A stretch of 64,000 bases of DNA from an uncultured Collinsella sp. (GTDB lineage Bacteria > Actinomycetota > Coriobacteriia > Coriobacteriales > Coriobacteriaceae), in contig UQHQ01000005.1 in assembly GCA_900540945.1 (NCBI GenBank), forward strand, positions 29,749-93,748. Reading direction: 5' to 3'. Shown here piece after piece: positions 26,347 to 41,456 of the stretch. The notes beneath the pieces were generated by a model. It was not told the DNA's origin. It saw only the letters and a list, made by a program, of their open reading frames with translations, and did not search any database. Position numbers and translations under genes: made by a program. Numbering within the stretch: position 1 is the first letter of the stretch; every line of letters begins with the position of its first letter.

Positions 26347-26386
26347 AGGAGGCATCCGAAAGGATGCCTCCTTTTTTGAGGGTTCG
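26347..26386 (+). terminator. Rho-independent terminator of the carboxypeptidase gene
   Basis: ggaggcatcc-gaaa-ggatgcctcc followed by tttttt. Confidence 0.7.
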
Positions 26387-26405
26387 AATCCCCAGCGCCC
26401 TTTCT
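26381..26405. repeat. Short tRNA T-arm mimic (inverted copy of the tRNA-Ser T-arm) downstream of the tRNA-Ser terminator
   Basis: gagggttcgaatccccagcgccc versus tRNA-Ser T-arm/acceptor ctggggttcgaatccccagctctcc on the opposite strand. Confidence 0.45.
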
Positions 26406-26453: not shown

Positions 26454-26544
26454 TGGCGGAGAGCTGGGGATTCGAACCCCAGATGCCCTTTTGGGGCATA
26501 CTCGCTTAGCAGGCGAGCACCTTCGGCCTCTCGGTCAGCTCTCC
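26454..26544 (-). tRNA. tRNA-Ser (anticodon GCT), type II with long variable arm, CCA encoded
   Basis: GGAGAGC acceptor, anticodon loop CTGCTAA, variable arm TATGCCCCAAAAGGGCATC, T-arm TGGGGTTCGAATCCCCA, GCTCTCC-G-CCA. Confidence 0.9.
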
Positions 26545-26638: not shown

Positions 26639-29080
26639 CTACCCCAACGAGCGGTTGAGGGAGCCAAGTTCGTCGTTGCCCATGGTGCGCCACATTTGGA
26701 AGATGCAGACGCGCGCCAGGAAAAAGAAGCCGTTATCGACCAACTGCACAGCAGCATCCGCCAGCTGGTTGGTCACGGCGAGCACGGGAGGCAGCTCGAG
26801 CCCGGCTTTACGGATGGTCTCAACCGCATCCTCGAACGTCGGCGGCTCATTGACGCCCATCTCGTTCATAAGGCCCTGCATTTCCTCCAGCGCGCTGCTA
26901 CCCGACTCCTCGCCGCGCGGCACGAGGCGGTAGCACGCCAACGCGAGCTCGAGCTGGTCGCAGTTCCAATAGGCAAACGCCAGACGATAGAACAGATAAC
27001 CGATTGCGGAACGGTCACTGGCAATGCGCAGGCCGTGGCGCGCAACCTCGATAATCTCGTCAAAGCGCTCCAGGCGCGCCAGCACGTTGATGAGCGCAAA
27101 GTGCGACTGCATGGACGAGCGAGCCAGATCGTAAAGACGACGCACCTCGGGCAATGCCCGTTCAAAATCCTCCTGCTCGGCGTAATAACTGCAGATCTCG
27201 TGCTGGGCAAAGTACAGCGCATCGGGAGCACGCAAAATACGAACGGAGCGGTCTTCCTCCATTACCGGCAGCACCATGCGTACCAGCTGGTTGTCGCAAA
27301 ACTGCGTCTGGACCGGACCCGTTGCCAAAAGCTCGGCAACGGCGCACTTAGCCTCCAACTCCTCAACAAGACGGGAGAAGCCCTCAAACGCGCTTGCACG
27401 GTCAACTTTTGCCTGCTCGCGCAACTCAACGACGCGCGCCACATACGGGTCATCGTCCATCTCCATGACCTCGAGCTCATCAGCCGTATCGGCAAGCAGC
27501 AGGTCACGCAACGCCGGCGGCAGCGAACGGTGGTCGTCACGCGGGCGAGCGTGAACCTCTGCAGGCTCAATCGCATCCGGCGCGTCCGACTCATATGCCT
27601 CAAGCATGCGCTTGCACGGCATATCGTCCATATCCATGCTCTCAAGATCCTTGGCGACAGGCACGCAATTGGCCAGATAGGCCGCACGCCCAAAGGAATA
27701 TGTTGCAATGACGCGCTCGCCCTGCTCGCCGTCGGGAGCCGCAATCTGAACATAGCAGCGCGCAATGCAGGCACCTGCGGCAAAGCAAGCCGCTGCCAGC
27801 GTAAGCGCCACGCGCGCGTCGTGCTCCGCGGCCCAAATCGCACGCGCACTCTCGTCCAACTCGCGCCAAACATCATCCTGGGCGTCGTATTCACGTTGTG
27901 GCATGGCATCCACGACAGAGTGCCCAAACCGAACGAGCATAATCCCCTCGGCAACGTTTGCCCGATAGGTATAGTCGAGCCGTGTGACCACGTTAAGTGC
28001 CTCGACAATACGCGCGAAGCGGCTGCGCACATCCCACTCACCGCCCGGCTGGCAAGCCACCGTTCCCGGTTTGCCCCACGGGTTGTCGCTCGAGGCCGTA
28101 TCGAGCAGTCGGGGAACATCGTTGGTCGTCTTGGCGATATGCCACGCGTCAAAGAGCGCGCAGCCCTCAAGGCTCGGCGAGGATGCCGCCGGGACCAATC
28201 CGGCCCCGATGCGTTCAAGGATGCCAGAGAGGCGATTGAGACGGCACTCGATGGCAAGCAGCATGTCAATCTCGTCCTGGTCCAGCAGGCTGCGATCAAA
28301 ATTGAGATAGAACAGCTTTGAGCGGTCGATGCGCGCTAGGCTCATTTCGGACTTGGCAGCAATGGTGCGCAGGCGGGGTAAGTCGATCTCGCTCATAAGG
28401 GCGGCGGCATAGCGCTCGATACCGCTCGGATTCTCGGCATGGTCAACACGGTAAAGCAGCGTCTCGATAGCATCGGGGAGCGGTGCCGTGTCAAAGCCCA
28501 AAAACACCTCGACCGGCTCGGGCAACTTTACGAGTTTGATCTTGTCGACAACGTTTTGCATGTCTGCATCGAGACCGTCGACGCCCGCCGTGTTCGCAAG
28601 AGCGCTTTCGGAGTTGGCAAATATCACGTAGCGCAAGAACATCGAGGCCATGAACTCGCCGAAAGGAAGGGCGCGGGTCGAATTCCATGTCTCGTGGTCG
28701 GACTGCTCGCGCATGGGGCCTTCGGGAGAGCCGGCAGTTCGCGCACACGCGCGCATTGCACCGTTAGCTTCCCTCACCATAATCTCGCCAATACTGGAAT
28801 CGGACTCGTGAAGGACCAGCTCCATGTCAGGGTCCTCGGGCAACGGTACTTCCCGAACAGGACGATCAACCTTATAAACCTTGCCCGACACGCTCACGTA
28901 GCCCAAGAGCGATATGTGAGTTTTGCCGACGAATTCGACGACATAGCACGACTCTTTGGGGTCCTCGCCAAAGACTTTCCAGACAACACCATATGAGCGC
29001 CCCGCAGGCTGCTCTGGCATCGATGGAAAACGCTTTTTGGGGTCGAGAAACCTGAGCTTGTATGTCGGACGCTCTGCCAC
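26639..29080 (-). CDS. Large hypothetical cytoplasmic protein (813 aa), acidic, C-terminal TPR-like helical repeats. No recognisable catalytic motif.
   Basis: Long uninterrupted ORF with coding-like GC3 bias. The C-terminal about 150 aa show helical-repeat character (AIGYLFYRLAFAYWNCDQLELALACYRLV). Flanked by tRNA-Ser and the tRNA-Arg array. Confidence 0.6.
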   Translation of the reverse strand: MAERPTYKLRFLDPKKRFPSMPEQPAGRSYGVVWKVFGEDPKESCYVVEFVGKTHISLLGYVSVSGKVYKVDRPVREVPLPEDPDMELVLHESDSSIGEIMVREANGAMRACARTAGSPEGPMREQSDHETWNSTRALPFGEFMASMFLRYVIFANSESALANTAGVDGLDADMQNVVDKIKLVKLPEPVEVFLGFDTAPLPDAIETLLYRVDHAENPSGIERYAAALMSEIDLPRLRTIAAKSEMSLARIDRSKLFYLNFDRSLLDQDEIDMLLAIECRLNRLSGILERIGAGLVPAASSPSLEGCALFDAWHIAKTTNDVPRLLDTASSDNPWGKPGTVACQPGGEWDVRSRFARIVEALNVVTRLDYTYRANVAEGIMLVRFGHSVVDAMPQREYDAQDDVWRELDESARAIWAAEHDARVALTLAAACFAAGACIARCYVQIAAPDGEQGERVIATYSFGRAAYLANCVPVAKDLESMDMDDMPCKRMLEAYESDAPDAIEPAEVHARPRDDHRSLPPALRDLLLADTADELEVMEMDDDPYVARVVELREQAKVDRASAFEGFSRLVEELEAKCAVAELLATGPVQTQFCDNQLVRMVLPVMEEDRSVRILRAPDALYFAQHEICSYYAEQEDFERALPEVRRLYDLARSSMQSHFALINVLARLERFDEIIEVARHGLRIASDRSAIGYLFYRLAFAYWNCDQLELALACYRLVPRGEESGSSALEEMQGLMNEMGVNEPPTFEDAVETIRKAGLELPPVLAVTNQLADAAVQLVDNGFFFLARVCIFQMWRTMGNDELGSLNRSLG

Positions 29081-29160: not shown

Positions 29161-29215
29161 CGATAAGAAATAGTCCGCTTTACACTCACGCCTCGACTGA
29201 GGTTCGGATCCATGG
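29161..29215. repeat. Partial (3' about 55 nt) copy of the tRNA-linked GC-rich element
   Basis: gtccgctttacactcacgcctcgactgaggttcggatccatgggatgccggcg, similar to the ends of the full copies at 29276-29404 and 29701-29830. Confidence 0.55.
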
Positions 29216-29256
29216 GATGCCGGCGTAAAAGAAAAGCCCCCGTTGCCGGAGGCTTG

Positions 29257-29404
29257 AAGTTCAATTGGTGCGGCGTATAGGATTCCGCGCATCCGCTTCG
29301 CGGATCCGCGCCGGCTTCGCCCGCCTGCCGGCGTGCTCGCCCGCTCGCTACGGACGCTCCGCGTCCGCTTTACGCTCGCGCCTCGACCGAGGTTCGAATC
29401 CATG
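29257..29404. repeat. Chimeric pseudo-tRNA unit A: 19-nt tRNA-Arg 3' fragment (29257-29275) fused to an about 125-nt GC-rich structured element containing an inverted T-loop mimic
   Basis: tggtgcggcgtataggatt | ccgcgcatccgcttcgcggatccgcgcc...cggacgctccgcgtccg...cgaccgaggttcgaatccatggg. Flanked on both sides by the shared terminator hairpin. Confidence 0.7.
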
Positions 29405-29405
29405 G

Positions 29406-29446
29406 GATGCCGGCGTAAAAGAAAAGCCTCCGTTGCCGGAGGCTTC
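29406..29446 (-). terminator. Terminator hairpin + T-run after tRNA-Arg copy 1
   Basis: On minus: CCA-attgaacttga-agcctccggcaacggaggct-tttcttttac. Confidence 0.6.
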
Positions 29447-29523
29447 AAGTTCAATTGGTGCGGCGTATAGGATTCGAACCTATGACGTTCTGATTCGTAG
29501 TCAGACCCTCTATCCAGCTGAGG
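29447..29523 (-). tRNA. tRNA-Arg (anticodon ACG), copy 1, CCA encoded
   Basis: GCGGCGT-TA-CCTC-AGCTGGATA-GAGG-G-TCTGA-CTACGAA-TCAGA-ACGTC-ATAGG-TTCGAAT-CCTAT-ACGCCGC-A-CCA. Confidence 0.92.
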
Positions 29524-29535
29524 TAACGCCGCGAC

Positions 29536-29564
29536 TTGTTGATTATTATGCACATGGACTGAAT
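29536..29564 (-). promoter_or_regulatory. Sigma-70-like promoter for tRNA-Arg copy 1 (TTGACC-N17-CATAAT on the minus strand)
   Basis: Revcomp reads cTTGACCattattcagtccatgtgCATAATaat, then about 7 nt to the tRNA 5' end. Confidence 0.6.
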
Positions 29565-29681
29565 AATGGTCAAGCGTTTTTTCAAAAAAAGTTATCGAAT
29601 TTGATTTTTACTCATTTGGAGCACTTGGCGCGATCCTCGACGTATCGCGATATAAGAAAAGCCCCCGTTGCCGGGAGCTTC

Positions 29682-29830
29682 AAGATCAATTGGTGCGGCG
29701 TATAGGATTCCGCGCATCCGCTGCGCGAATCCGCGCCGGCTTCGCCCGCCTGCCGGCGTGCTCGCCCGCTCGCTGAAAACGCTCCGCGTTTTCTTGACGC
29801 TCGCGCCTCGACCGAGGTTCGAATCTCCGC
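29682..29830. repeat. Chimeric pseudo-tRNA unit B: 19-nt tRNA-Arg 3' fragment (29682-29700) fused to an about 130-nt GC-rich structured element. On the plus strand it ends in T-arm-like gaggttcgaatctcc + gcaatgct-c-cca.
   Basis: About 90% identical to unit A. The central hairpin gaaaacgc-tcc-gcgttttc (unit A: cggacgc-tcc-gcgtccg) shows compensatory changes. Confidence 0.7.
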
Positions 29831-29871
29831 AATGCTCCCATATAAGAAAAGCCCCCGTTGCCGGGAGCTTT
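29830..29871 (-). terminator. Terminator hairpin + T-run after tRNA-Arg copy 2
   Basis: aagctcccggcaacgggggctt + ttcttatat on minus. Confidence 0.6.
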
Positions 29872-29948
29872 AAAGTCAATTGGTGCGGCGTATAGGATTC
29901 GAACCTATGACGTTCTGATTCGTAGTCAGACCCTCTATCCAGCTGAGG
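29872..29948 (-). tRNA. tRNA-Arg (ACG), copy 2, identical to copy 1
   Basis: Identical 77-nt sequence including CCA. Confidence 0.92.
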
Positions 29949-29960
29949 TAACGCCGCAAC

Positions 29961-29989
29961 GCACGGATTATTATGCACGCGAGCCCCCG
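29961..29989 (-). promoter_or_regulatory. Promoter for tRNA-Arg copy 2 (TTGACC-N17-CATAAT)
   Basis: Revcomp reads gcTTGACCcatcgggggctcgcgtgCATAATaatccgtgcgt-GCGGCG. Confidence 0.6.
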
Positions 29990-30036
29990 ATGGGTCAAGC
30001 GACAATTTGAAAAAATTTTACGGAGTGGTGATTAGG

Positions 30037-30065
30037 CTGTTCACACCCCGACCGAGGTTCGAATC
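30037..30065. repeat. Short partial copy of the element end with T-loop mimic
   Basis: ccccgaccgaggttcgaatccatgcatgg. Confidence 0.5.
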
Positions 30066-30069
30066 CATG

Positions 30070-30111
30070 CATGGTTTCCAAAAAAGAAAAGCCCCCGTTG
30101 CCGGAGGCTTC
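30070..30111 (-). terminator. Terminator hairpin + T-run after tRNA-Arg copy 3
   Basis: aagcctccggcaacgggggctt + ttcttttttgg on minus. Confidence 0.6.
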
Positions 30112-30188
30112 AAGTTCGATTGGTGCGGCGTATAGGATTCGAACCTATGACGTTCTGATTCGTAGTCAGACCCTCTATCCAGCTGAGG
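30112..30188 (-). tRNA. tRNA-Arg (ACG), copy 3, identical
   Basis: Identical 77-nt sequence. Upstream TTGACT...TTTATA promoter-like sequence at 30196-30235. Confidence 0.92.
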
Positions 30189-30271
30189 TAACGCCGCAGC
30201 GCAAGTCATATAAAACCACTTTAGTTAGTTGGAGTCAAGCACAATCTCAAACTTTTTTGAGAATATGTTCC

Positions 30272-30649
30272 TTACGCAGCTCCGCATGCGCCAGCGTCCC
30301 CCATGCGATCAATCGGTTTTTCAACCACATCGAACCCGGCACCGAGCTCCCTCAAAAGCGAGCGCACCCGCTGGGCACAGTCATAATCGGCAAACGAGAT
30401 GCTCAGCATGCGCGCGACCTGGTTAGAAGTCCCAACTCCATAGAACCGCTCAAGCGTCACAAGCCCCTCGTGCGTCACAAAAGTCTCGACTACATGCGAC
30501 GACTCCTCAAAACACCATTGGGTCAACGGGCCCTCGCTCGTCTGCCGCACCACCAAACCACCCACACCCGATGGCTCACACGTAACTAGTAAGTGCTCCC
30601 CACCTTCATCGCTCTCAAACAAAACTACCCGCTCATCAAACAGCTCCAT
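30272..30649 (-). CDS. Hypothetical small protein (125 aa)
   Basis: ORF with coding-like composition between the tRNA-Arg array and serS. No recognisable motif. Confidence 0.35.
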   Translation of the reverse strand: MELFDERVVLFESDEGGEHLLVTCEPSGVGGLVVRQTSEGPLTQWCFEESSHVVETFVTHEGLVTLERFYGVGTSNQVARMLSISFADYDCAQRVRSLLRELGAGFDVVEKPIDRMGDAGACGAA

Positions 30650-34883: not shown

Positions 34884-35098
34884 CGTGGACAAAAAAGTCC
34901 AAATATGAGTACTGCTACCAGTTTAGTAACAGCGTTTTAAAGACCAAAACGCACTGTTGGACCAAGATTCCTTTCAAATTGACTCAGTTCAGCTCAAGGC
35001 AGTGTTAAGTTAGCAAACATTTGTTGCGTAAATAGTGCAATGATCACCTTTGAAAATGTGATTCATTTAGTGACAGTACTCATATTTGACATTTTTTG
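34884..35098. mobile_element. MITE-like element: about 215-bp AT-rich segment bounded by 24-bp terminal inverted repeats
   Basis: TIRs caaaaaagtccaaatatgagtactg / cagtactcatatttgacattttttg (1 mismatch). The interior is AT-rich with nested inverted repeats and no ORF. Confidence 0.55.
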
Positions 35099-35148: not shown

Positions 35149-35240
35149 CGCCTGCCAGCGGACTCGCCAGCTCGCTAAAAACGCTCCGCGTTTTCTTTGC
35201 GCTCGCTCCTTCACAGGTTCAAGTCCCCGTGATGGGCCCA
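35149..35240. repeat. tRNA-linked GC-rich structured element (Leu-locus copy), ending on plus in the T-arm mimic caggttcaagtcc + gtgatgggccca
   Basis: cgcctgccagcggactcgccagctcgctaaaaacgctccgcgttttctttgcgctcgc... aligns with the Arg-locus copies over about 85 nt. The T-loop TTCAAGT matches the tRNA-Leu T-loop rather than the Arg one. Confidence 0.65.
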
Positions 35241-35280: not shown

Positions 35281-35367
35281 TGGTGCGGGCGAAAGGACTT
35301 GAACCTTCATGGGGTTGCCCCCATACGGACCTGAACCGTACGCGTCTGCCAATTCCGCCACGCCCGC
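35281..35367 (-). tRNA. tRNA-Leu (anticodon CAG), type II, CCA encoded
   Basis: GCGGGCG acceptor, anticodon loop TTCAGGT, variable arm ATGGGGGCAACCCCATG, T-arm GAAGGTTCAAGTCCTTT, CGCCCGC-A-CCA. Confidence 0.9.
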
Positions 35368-40904: not shown

Positions 40905-41197
40905 ACTGCCCCCTTCGGATCGTGCAGGCCAAACCTGCATCGTATTGCATAGGAAAAGTATCGTTTTGAGTATACCCGCGCGTGCGGACAGACGACCGAA
41001 CGGTCTGTAAAGTGGCGCAAAAGCGGGAGGAATGTCTGGGGCGAGCGGGGTCAAGATGACGTACCGAGATGCGCATACACGCCGAGGGCAGGCGCCGGAA
41101 AGCGCATTCCATTCTTTCGCTCAATAATGGGATGCGCTTTCCGCGGGTCCACATAAAAGAAAAGGACCCCTTTGCAGAGGTCCTAGTCAATTCAAGG

Positions 41198-41335
41198 TGG
41201 CGGGGAAGGGAATCGCGTCCGCGCGCTGCGCGGACGGACCGCTGCGGCGCCTGCGCGCCTTGCGAGCTACGCTGGAAAACGCTTGCGCGTTTCCTCAGCT
41301 CCGCGCCCTCACGGGGTTCGATTCCGTGCATGGTC
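41198..41335. repeat. Chimeric pseudo-tRNA unit (Phe locus): 18-nt tRNA-Phe 3' fragment (41198-41215) fused to an about 120-nt GC-rich structured element ending in the T-arm mimic cacggggttcgattccgtg
   Basis: Same architecture as the Arg units. The central hairpin ggaaaacgc-ttgc-gcgtttcc is homologous to the Arg/Leu hairpin with a different loop. The T-loop TTCGATT matches tRNA-Phe. Confidence 0.65.
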
Positions 41336-41383
41336 CACATAAAAGAAAAGGACCCCTTTGCAGAGGTCCTAGTCAATTCAAGG
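41336..41383 (-). terminator. Terminator hairpin + T-run after tRNA-Phe (a second copy after the pseudo-unit lies at 41150-41197)
   Basis: ggacctctgcaaaggggtcc + ttttcttttatgtgg on minus. Confidence 0.6.

Positions 41384-41456
<73 letters not shown>

Follow-up and report, generated by a model that had tools for sequence, protein, structure and literature searches.

The window analysed here, a 64,000-nt stretch of contig UQHQ01000005.1 from an uncultured Collinsella sp. (assembly GCA_900540945.1, positions 29,749 to 93,748 of the forward strand), carries a tRNA-Arg(ACG) array that lies wholly on its minus strand. The array contains three tRNA genes and two extra copies of the tRNA 3' part, each of the latter joined to a GC-rich element of ~120 nt that we named X. 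The original prediction, made from the sequence alone, had described these as three identical gene units and two chimeric pseudo-tRNA units that arose by unit duplication and targeted disruption at the T loop. We find that X belongs to a family of tRNA-associated structured elements, apparently not described before, whose members lie behind several tRNA genes and have ends cognate to each of them. From the serS side, the parts of the array are as follows:

30210..30238, minus strand: promoter-like site of copy C, TTGACT-N17-TTTTAT (sequence reading; the consensus scan did not report it)
30121..30197, minus strand: tRNA-Arg(ACG) copy C (ARAGORN; Rfam tRNA at 66 bits; same sequence as copies A and B)
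30088..30111, minus strand: intrinsic terminator after copy C (terminator scan)
30037..30066, minus strand: degenerate X left end, with the inverted T-arm copy GGATTCGAACC and decayed sequence, then the next promoter (BLAST)
29970..29998, minus strand: promoter of copy B, TTGACC-N17-CATAAT (promoter scan)
29881..29957, minus strand: tRNA-Arg(ACG) copy B (ARAGORN; Rfam; sequence identity)
29848..29871, minus strand: terminator after copy B (terminator scan)
29711..29830, minus strand: X copy 2, with inverted T-arm copy, helix P1, H1 (GAAAACGC-GGA-GCGTTTTC), H2 and H3
29691..29710, minus strand: duplicated tRNA-Arg 3' part (nt 57-76) joined to X copy 2 (sequence)
29658..29681, minus strand: terminator after pseudo-unit 2 (terminator scan)
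29545..29573, minus strand: promoter of copy A, TTGACC-N17-CATAAT (promoter scan)
29456..29532, minus strand: tRNA-Arg(ACG) copy A (ARAGORN; Rfam; sequence identity)
29423..29446, minus strand: terminator after copy A (terminator scan)
29286..29405, minus strand: X copy 1, H1 allele CGGACGC-GGA-GCGTCCG (covariance model, BLAST)
29266..29285, minus strand: duplicated tRNA-Arg 3' part joined to X copy 1 (sequence)
29234..29255, minus strand: terminator after pseudo-unit 1 (terminator scan)
29173..29211, minus strand: terminal X copy, cut after the 5' arm of H1 (...GTAAAGCGGAC) (BLAST, sequence)

The three tRNA-Arg(ACG) genes, 77 nt each, were mutually 100% identical by ARAGORN, Rfam and sequence comparison, as the original prediction had held. 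The promoter that it assigned to every gene is present at copies A and B; that of copy C, the tRNA-Arg gene closest to serS, differs from it. Five terminator-like hairpins with T runs were found in the array against 2.0 expected from shuffles, bearing out the claim of a terminator behind each unit; they are nearly identical, and one follows each of the five tRNA 3' fragments. The 19-nt fragment itself, AATCCTATACGCCGCACCA (20 nt including the preceding G), occurs three times within the genes and twice in addition, and both additional copies are fused to X at the identical nucleotide, again as predicted. X copies 1 and 2 are 91% identical to one another and match the covariance model at 141 bits (29271-29408) and 142 bits (29696-29833), respectively; the H1 allele of copy 1 is compensatory to that of copy 2. 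The degenerate left end gives a weak match (30026-30073, 18.6 bits), and the truncated terminal X forms the 3' boundary of the array, which is common to loci L050 and L063. The array repeat is longer than originally described: it spans the T loop, trailer and terminator and runs into the next element (D1/D2 families), with an irregular period of 190, 425 and 240 nt.

X was not confined to the tRNA-Arg genes. Elements homologous to it follow tRNA-Phe and tRNA-Leu in the same window, and a solo inverted T-arm copy lies behind tRNA-Ser:

41216..41331, minus strand: Phe-type X, 116 nt, GC-rich, behind tRNA-Phe (41382-41456) and its terminator (covariance model, 85 bits)
35149..35228, minus strand: Leu-type X behind tRNA-Leu(CAG) (35281-35367), distal part truncated (covariance model, 79 bits)
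26380..26396, minus strand: solo 17-nt inverted copy of the tRNA-Ser T arm (26463-26479), behind the tRNA-Ser terminator

A perfect 70-nt direct repeat (41332-41401 and 41146-41215), extending from the T loop through trailer and terminator, brackets the Phe-type X, and the corresponding sites in L005 and L021 are empty. Arg- and Leu-type X are ~80% identical (76-82% over 80-96 nt in the window by BLAST), and a full Leu-type X with its tRNA-Leu 3' repeat is present in other genomes. Likewise, a full Ser-type X occupies the position of the solo inverted T-arm copy in L016, L032, L036, L148 and L189. Because the X family sits behind tRNA-Phe, -Leu, -Ser and others with cognate ends, the pseudo-units are not disrupted tRNA-Arg copies, and this part of the original prediction is not supported as it stood; its other part, that duplication shapes the array, agrees with the variety of array architectures described below. 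As read from the comparative sequences, the phenomenon is a tRNA-T-loop-associated insertion element with target duplication and is not specific to the Arg array.

Two other repeats were observed beside these units. Behind tRNA-Phe, a second repeat family with palindromic units (GCGGAAAnGCRTCCC...GGGAYGCGCTTTCCG) is represented once in the window (41096-41144) and several times in tandem in L005 (640-900). An AT-rich insert of 189 nt that resembles a transposable element of the miniature inverted-repeat type (MITE), at 34900-35088 and bounded by terminal inverted repeats of 15 nt (CAAATATGAGTACTG), stands in place of the distal part of the Leu-type X; L003, L149, L179 and L204 carry it, and L032 lacks it.

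The order of parts within a unit was constant: tRNA, terminator, a short variable stretch, an inverted T-arm copy, three or four hairpins, and then the tRNA 3' part, which starts at nt 57-59, with its trailer and terminator. Both ends are cognate to the local tRNA. The left-end hairpin has a 7-nt loop that is reverse-complementary to the T loop of the neighbouring tRNA (Arg and Ser, TTCGAAT; Leu, TTCAAGT; Phe, TTCGATT), and the inverted T-arm copies match the local tRNA exactly over 12-17 nt; on the right, the junction with the local tRNA is at nt 57-59 in every case. The direct repeats flanking X measure 55-70 nt, include the terminator and leave the tRNA intact. X lacks ordinary terminal inverted repeats, its sole inverted repeat being formed by the left end with the target-derived flank (6-13 nt). 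The body of X contains no open reading frame (ORF) and, apart from an insertion sequence (IS) at L020 that is taken up below, has no adjacent recombinase gene; no X copy was contiguous with an integrase-bearing element in the loci examined, of which the protein-by-protein screen covered only some.

Duplicated trailers and terminators were near-identical within a genome and unalignable between genera. X bodies at different tRNAs of one genome were similarly more alike than orthologous bodies between genera, and the orthologous Ser-locus elements of C. ihumii and another genus were barely alignable. It follows from this within-genome likeness of bodies and repeats that units formed or were homogenised within lineages, which points to copying of X within lineages and not to a single ancient insertion. 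In a concerted-evolution test, the repeat differences within genomes were no smaller than those between genomes among close Collinsella genomes. One Phe-type X (L038:775-1300) contains an internal 84-nt tandem duplication, GGAGCTGAG... to ...GCGCGCGG.

We tested the fold of X on an alignment of 35 diverse copies (920 cells, 27 pairs, 500 shuffles). Four helices were supported: 92% of the 920 cells were paired, with double-sided changes in 14 of the 27 pairs, values that none of the 500 shuffles reached, while slid controls were only 23-51% paired. Pairing was highest in H1 (99.6%), followed by H3 (97%), H2 (94.5%) and P1 (76%). A purine-purine mismatch in H3 is retained in all types, and the loops are C-GNA-G triloops or GNRA tetraloops (GTGA, GTAA, GCAA and GAAA in H1). 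Minimum-energy folds added a closing helix between the left end and the T-loop-derived right flank, of different sequence for each tRNA. G-T wobbles exceed A-C on the tRNA-sense strand, both in the body (13 vs 5) and in the left hairpin (9 vs 4 and 12 vs 2); therefore, if a single strand folds, it would be the tRNA-sense strand. Two further pairings were rejected. An acceptor-stem mimic, in which the tRNA tail pairs with a segment 5' of H3 in several types, was not significant by minimum free energy against shuffled tails, and a long-range helix joining the CCGGTGC segment to the variable stretch that lies 5' of the inverted T arm displayed no consistent covariation in 40 Arg copies. In the L145 copy the H3 loop reads TTC in place of GAA with both arms unchanged, that is, the loop is inverted. 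Such an inversion is typical of events that act on palindromes at the DNA level.

Pattern scans of viral and metagenome collections, together with the covariance model, extended the family beyond the window. In related Collinsella genomes X lies behind tRNA-Ser and behind one further tRNA, the latter beside a prophage end; very diverged units lie at the tRNA-Ser orthologues in C. ihumii and in a further Coriobacteriaceae genus, and others lie behind tRNA-Leu(CAA) and tRNA-Glu in unrelated metagenome contigs. The covariance-model search detected no X copy in the Olsenella, Atopobium or Eggerthellaceae loci. Rfam 15 gave only tRNA matches, and X itself drew no hit, the E-value limit being 10 for the window and 1 for four other loci. 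Literature searches returned no description of such elements, which is weak negative evidence. The prophage just mentioned is of a Collinsella type (L091, L093, L095, L097, L098, L100, L206) and encodes a GH25/LysM endolysin and a reverse transcriptase, possibly part of a diversity-generating retroelement. The prophage finishes with a tRNA-like 3' end and a terminator that directly adjoin an X unit, giving three tandem tRNA 3' ends, and its viral contigs (L091 etc.) all break inside X.

We compared 80 syntenic loci retrieved through the neighbouring SerS gene, which place the window in Collinsella (aerofaciens group), in agreement with the class Coriobacteriia assumed by the original prediction. 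Among the 24 Arg arrays that were fully spanned from serS to tRNA-Ser we found 15 architectures, with 1-4 tRNAs and 0-3 X-plus-fragment units, and the TTxTx order of the window was unique. Some forms are truncated, with X passing into the next promoter, and some are hybrids of different X types; the hybrids in metagenome contigs are possible assembly chimeras. X behind tRNA-Phe and tRNA-Leu is present in some genomes and absent in others, the empty sites being exact, and L006 carries an exact tandem of two units of X plus repeat at tRNA-Leu. That the Arg array is hypervariable is most simply explained by homologous recombination between the modules repeated in it. More than 60 independent assemblies, the isolates L028 and L041 among them, contained X units with this same junction. 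The original prediction had named the absence of inserts from relatives, together with signs that they are chimeric, as grounds for abandoning it; the comparison with related genomes gave the opposite result.

The genes neighbouring X encode SerS, a penicillin-binding protein, ProC and an SPFH protein, besides two ORFs without family match. The two flanking ORFs encode 813 aa (26639-29080, minus strand) and 125 aa (30272-30649, minus strand); neither had a Pfam, NCBIfam or PADLOC family, and only a faint match resembling tetratricopeptide repeats was seen. The distance from the array to tRNA-Ser ranges from 2.6 to 4.2 kb across genomes, so this region is variable too.

The reading that we favour, to which we assign a probability of roughly 45%, is that X is a non-coding, non-autonomous insertion element for tRNA T loops that regenerates the tRNA 3' end and is reshuffled by homologous recombination. 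Tyrosine integrases have a classical crossover sublocation in the T loop of tRNA genes, and they leave a direct repeat of the tRNA 3' part. Formally, an X unit would be a segment of tRNA 3' part, terminator and X inserted into the T loop, such that the gene stays intact. The body of X would be carried from locus to locus, both tRNA-derived ends becoming cognate to the local tRNA, and the inverted T-arm copy on the left would be able to pair with the direct repeat on the right in a helix (P0). A trans-acting enzyme would target the T loop, and the folding strand would be the tRNA-sense strand, as single-stranded DNA (ssDNA) or as RNA. The inverted T arm may be made cognate by copying from the target or by correction in a guide-target heteroduplex. 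Recombination among tRNA units, the 55-70-nt repeats and X copies would then produce tandem expansions, deletions to 'empty' sites, truncated copies and hybrids, with the TTxTx order of the window as one outcome.

Several points weigh against this reading. Mobility is what we infer from comparative anatomy, and no insertion was caught with an unambiguous ancestral empty site, since an 'empty' site can also be restored by deletion from repeat to repeat. X could not be linked to any transposase or integrase, the sole adjacent recombinase being the IS110-family element in L020. To our knowledge, a 55-70-nt duplication combined with an inverted target copy at one end matches no known transposition chemistry, nor does an insert of only 120 nt with no linked recombinase, and how the inverted T-arm copy becomes cognate is left unexplained. 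The body is turned round relative to the tRNA in a distant family (L108, L161), where it sits within a partial copy of tRNA-Leu. Finally, the compensatory hairpins, the H3 purine-purine mismatch and the conserved linkers could equally be read as signs of selected RNA function.

A more specific proposal, which we regard as improbable, is that X represents a class of guide-directed non-coding mobile elements. Its anti-T-arm, as ssDNA or RNA, would pair with the T arm of a tRNA gene and thereby choose the site, the guide being rewritten for each tRNA, and a host or phage enzyme would join the 3' end of X to the T loop at nt 57-59, duplicating the terminator together with the 3' end of the tRNA. 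We know of no counterpart among transposons or integrases to such a guide-directed, programmable and tRNA-restoring insertion.

Of the alternatives, the best placed is that X is a functional structured non-coding RNA (ncRNA) on the tRNA-sense strand, which we consider possible but doubtful. X would be transcribed by read-through of the first terminator and end at the second, its anti-T-arm and tRNA-like tail would serve as regulator, decoy or processing substrate, and the repeats would result from selection. The compensatory hairpin changes across types and genera, the conserved linkers with the retained H3 mismatch, the GNRA loops in H1 and the wobble bias toward the tRNA-sense strand all agree with an RNA, as does the second terminator, which is intact in most units. 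However, the window scan found no promoter-like site before X and a strong terminator directly upstream, and X lacks a match to any Rfam family. The C-GNA-G triloops are at least as typical of stable ssDNA hairpins, and pairing predicted between the tRNA tail and X was no better than with shuffled tails. X is also dispensable, being absent at a given tRNA in many close relatives; truncated copies are common, and in the distant family the body is reversed.

It is unlikely that X units are relics of attachment (att) sites. Under this explanation X would be the attP arm left in the T loop by a larger integrative element (a prophage or an integrative plasmid of actinobacteria), or else a naked attP mini-circle that a phage integrase had inserted, and the direct repeat would be the att identity segment. 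A repeat of 55-70 nt that starts in the T loop is indeed typical of actinomycete att identity segments, the unit of ~190 nt is close to the size of a complete attP, and at one tRNA locus an X unit abuts a prophage end amid tandem tRNA 3'-end repeats. Yet across ~200 loci X never lay beside an integrase gene within a larger repeat-bounded element, no match was found in 50,697 GenBank phages, and the prophage that adjoins X carries no X-like sequence in its own end, such that X there is best read as host flank. Compensatory upkeep of hairpins is not expected of a double-stranded att arm, and the same precise deletion would be needed anew at every tRNA locus. We also rejected X as a phage-borne attP arm, a candidate raised by its position at the ends of IMG/VR contigs that encode endolysin and reverse transcriptase: L206 shows a tRNA-like 3' end and terminator before X and host genes after it, and X beside the prophage is most simply host flank.

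An RNA intermediate is very unlikely. Here a reverse transcriptase would copy an X RNA, switch to a tRNA precursor and stop at 1-methyladenosine 58 (m1A58), a stop that would explain why the tRNA part begins at nt 59. The 18-nt segment from nt 59 is the one that retroviruses copy from tRNA primers, a start of the tRNA part at nt 59, behind a constant X end (...GCGGA(C)), is one possible reading for the Ser, Leu, Arg and Z types, position 58 may be taken as substituted by C (Leu type) or as having an extra C after it (Ser type), and the associated prophages contain reverse-transcriptase genes. In contrast, the repeat extends ~10 nt past the terminator T tract, beyond the expected transcript end, the junction falls at nt 56-57 in the Phe type, L110 and C. 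ihumii copy 1, and the inverted T-arm copy would require an antisense template. X has no linked reverse transcriptase, and m1A58 is not known for the Collinsella source organism. An assembly artefact through repeat collapse, expansion or chimerism can scarcely be maintained: many contigs of metagenome-assembled genomes (MAGs) end inside the Arg array and some metagenome hybrids may be chimeric, but the recurrence of X in isolates and more than 60 assemblies means that the inserts are real, arrays spanned from serS to tRNA-Ser contain them, and the Phe and Leu units are single-copy structures for which no repeat resolution is needed.

Other candidates were discarded. At L020 (1-975) an IS110-family IS (Pfam DEDD_Tnp_IS110 and Transposase_20) lies between the tRNA-Phe terminator and X, its transposase starting 145 nt from the Phe-type X, and we asked whether X is the non-coding or bridge-RNA end of such an element. 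Its full-length relatives L081-L088 have ends of their own (ACGATATGAGCAGGACA... and ...TGTCCTGCTCATAT), unrelated flanks and no X; X is therefore not the end of this IS. This IS (L020, L081-L088) has a non-coding stretch of ~450 nt after the gene and is very abundant in gut metagenomes, in clusters of thousands; four copies with readable flanks sit at ...AG/TAAAA... sites (the slash marking the IS position), some of them beside terminator-like hairpins. From anatomy, a group I or II intron, a retron, an omega-RNA/TnpB guide and an integron attC were not adopted, since X lacks a partner ORF, differs in size or does not carry the appropriate core motifs.

Transfer RNA genes are the commonest landing sites of mobile DNA, used as far as is known by large elements equipped with an integrase of their own. 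At many tRNA genes X, 120 nt long and non-coding, occupies that same position in the T loop; it contains sequence complementary to the target and keeps the tRNA intact. If mobile, it would define a minimal tRNA-targeting element and point to a further enzyme or to a mechanism in which base pairing guides the choice of site. X units also explain the breaks of Collinsella assemblies at tRNA loci and the change in tRNA-Arg copy number from 1 to 4 between close relatives, and the covariance model (R1) can be used to annotate them.

Compared with known systems, X resembles CRISPR (clustered regularly interspaced short palindromic repeats) arrays in a superficial periodicity and in a repeat duplicated beside each insert, but its 'spacers' are mutually homologous, its repeats are tRNA 3' ends with terminators, its period is irregular and cas genes are lacking, in keeping with the original prediction. 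That prediction had also argued against random decay, and rightly so: in contrast to a decayed pseudogene, the T-loop junction is precise and recurrent, with no difference between the two units or across dozens of genomes, and other tRNAs show the same architecture. With cis-mobilizable elements (CIMEs) and accretion arrays X shares non-autonomous units bounded by att-like repeats, stacked in tandem at a gene 3' end and in one case beside a prophage; CIMEs, however, are kilobases long and recognisably derived from integrative and conjugative elements (ICEs), whereas X measures 120 nt and has its own conserved fold. Like MITEs, repetitive extragenic palindromes (REP) and their composites (BIME, REPIN), and palindrome-associated elements derived from IS200/IS605, X is small, non-coding and multi-copy, forms imperfect hairpins, sits just behind terminators, varies in presence between strains and breaks assemblies. 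Its copies are dispersed and polymorphic as in MITEs, but the terminal inverted repeats and short target-site duplication of a MITE are replaced by a duplication of 55-70 nt, the ends are made of target sequence, the association with tRNA T loops is strict and no partner transposase was identified.

Integration by the tyrosine integrases of phages, ICEs and actinomycete integrative plasmids has several outcomes in common with X: an insert between an intact tRNA and a displaced 3' part from the T loop, a regenerated tRNA, and a 55-70-nt repeat that falls within the range of att identity segments. The direct repeat of the tRNA 3' part next to an intact tRNA, as expected of an att relic, is present; an element that encodes an integrase next to attP is not. 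X further departs from this system in being ~120 nt long and non-coding with no linked integrase, in a repeat that includes the terminator, in its inverted T-arm end, in a body of covarying hairpins and in the use of the same body at many tRNA genes. The sites that fold as single strands, integron attC and the attP of CTX phage, share with X ends that pair to rebuild a target-identical duplex, internal hairpins with conserved mismatches and tandem stacking like cassettes. Unlike attC, X comes without an integron integrase, a GTTRRRY core or a cassette ORF and forms a multi-hairpin junction in place of one long imperfect hairpin, and its role as ssDNA is putative; the compensatory helices that mark a structured nucleic-acid element are present in X.

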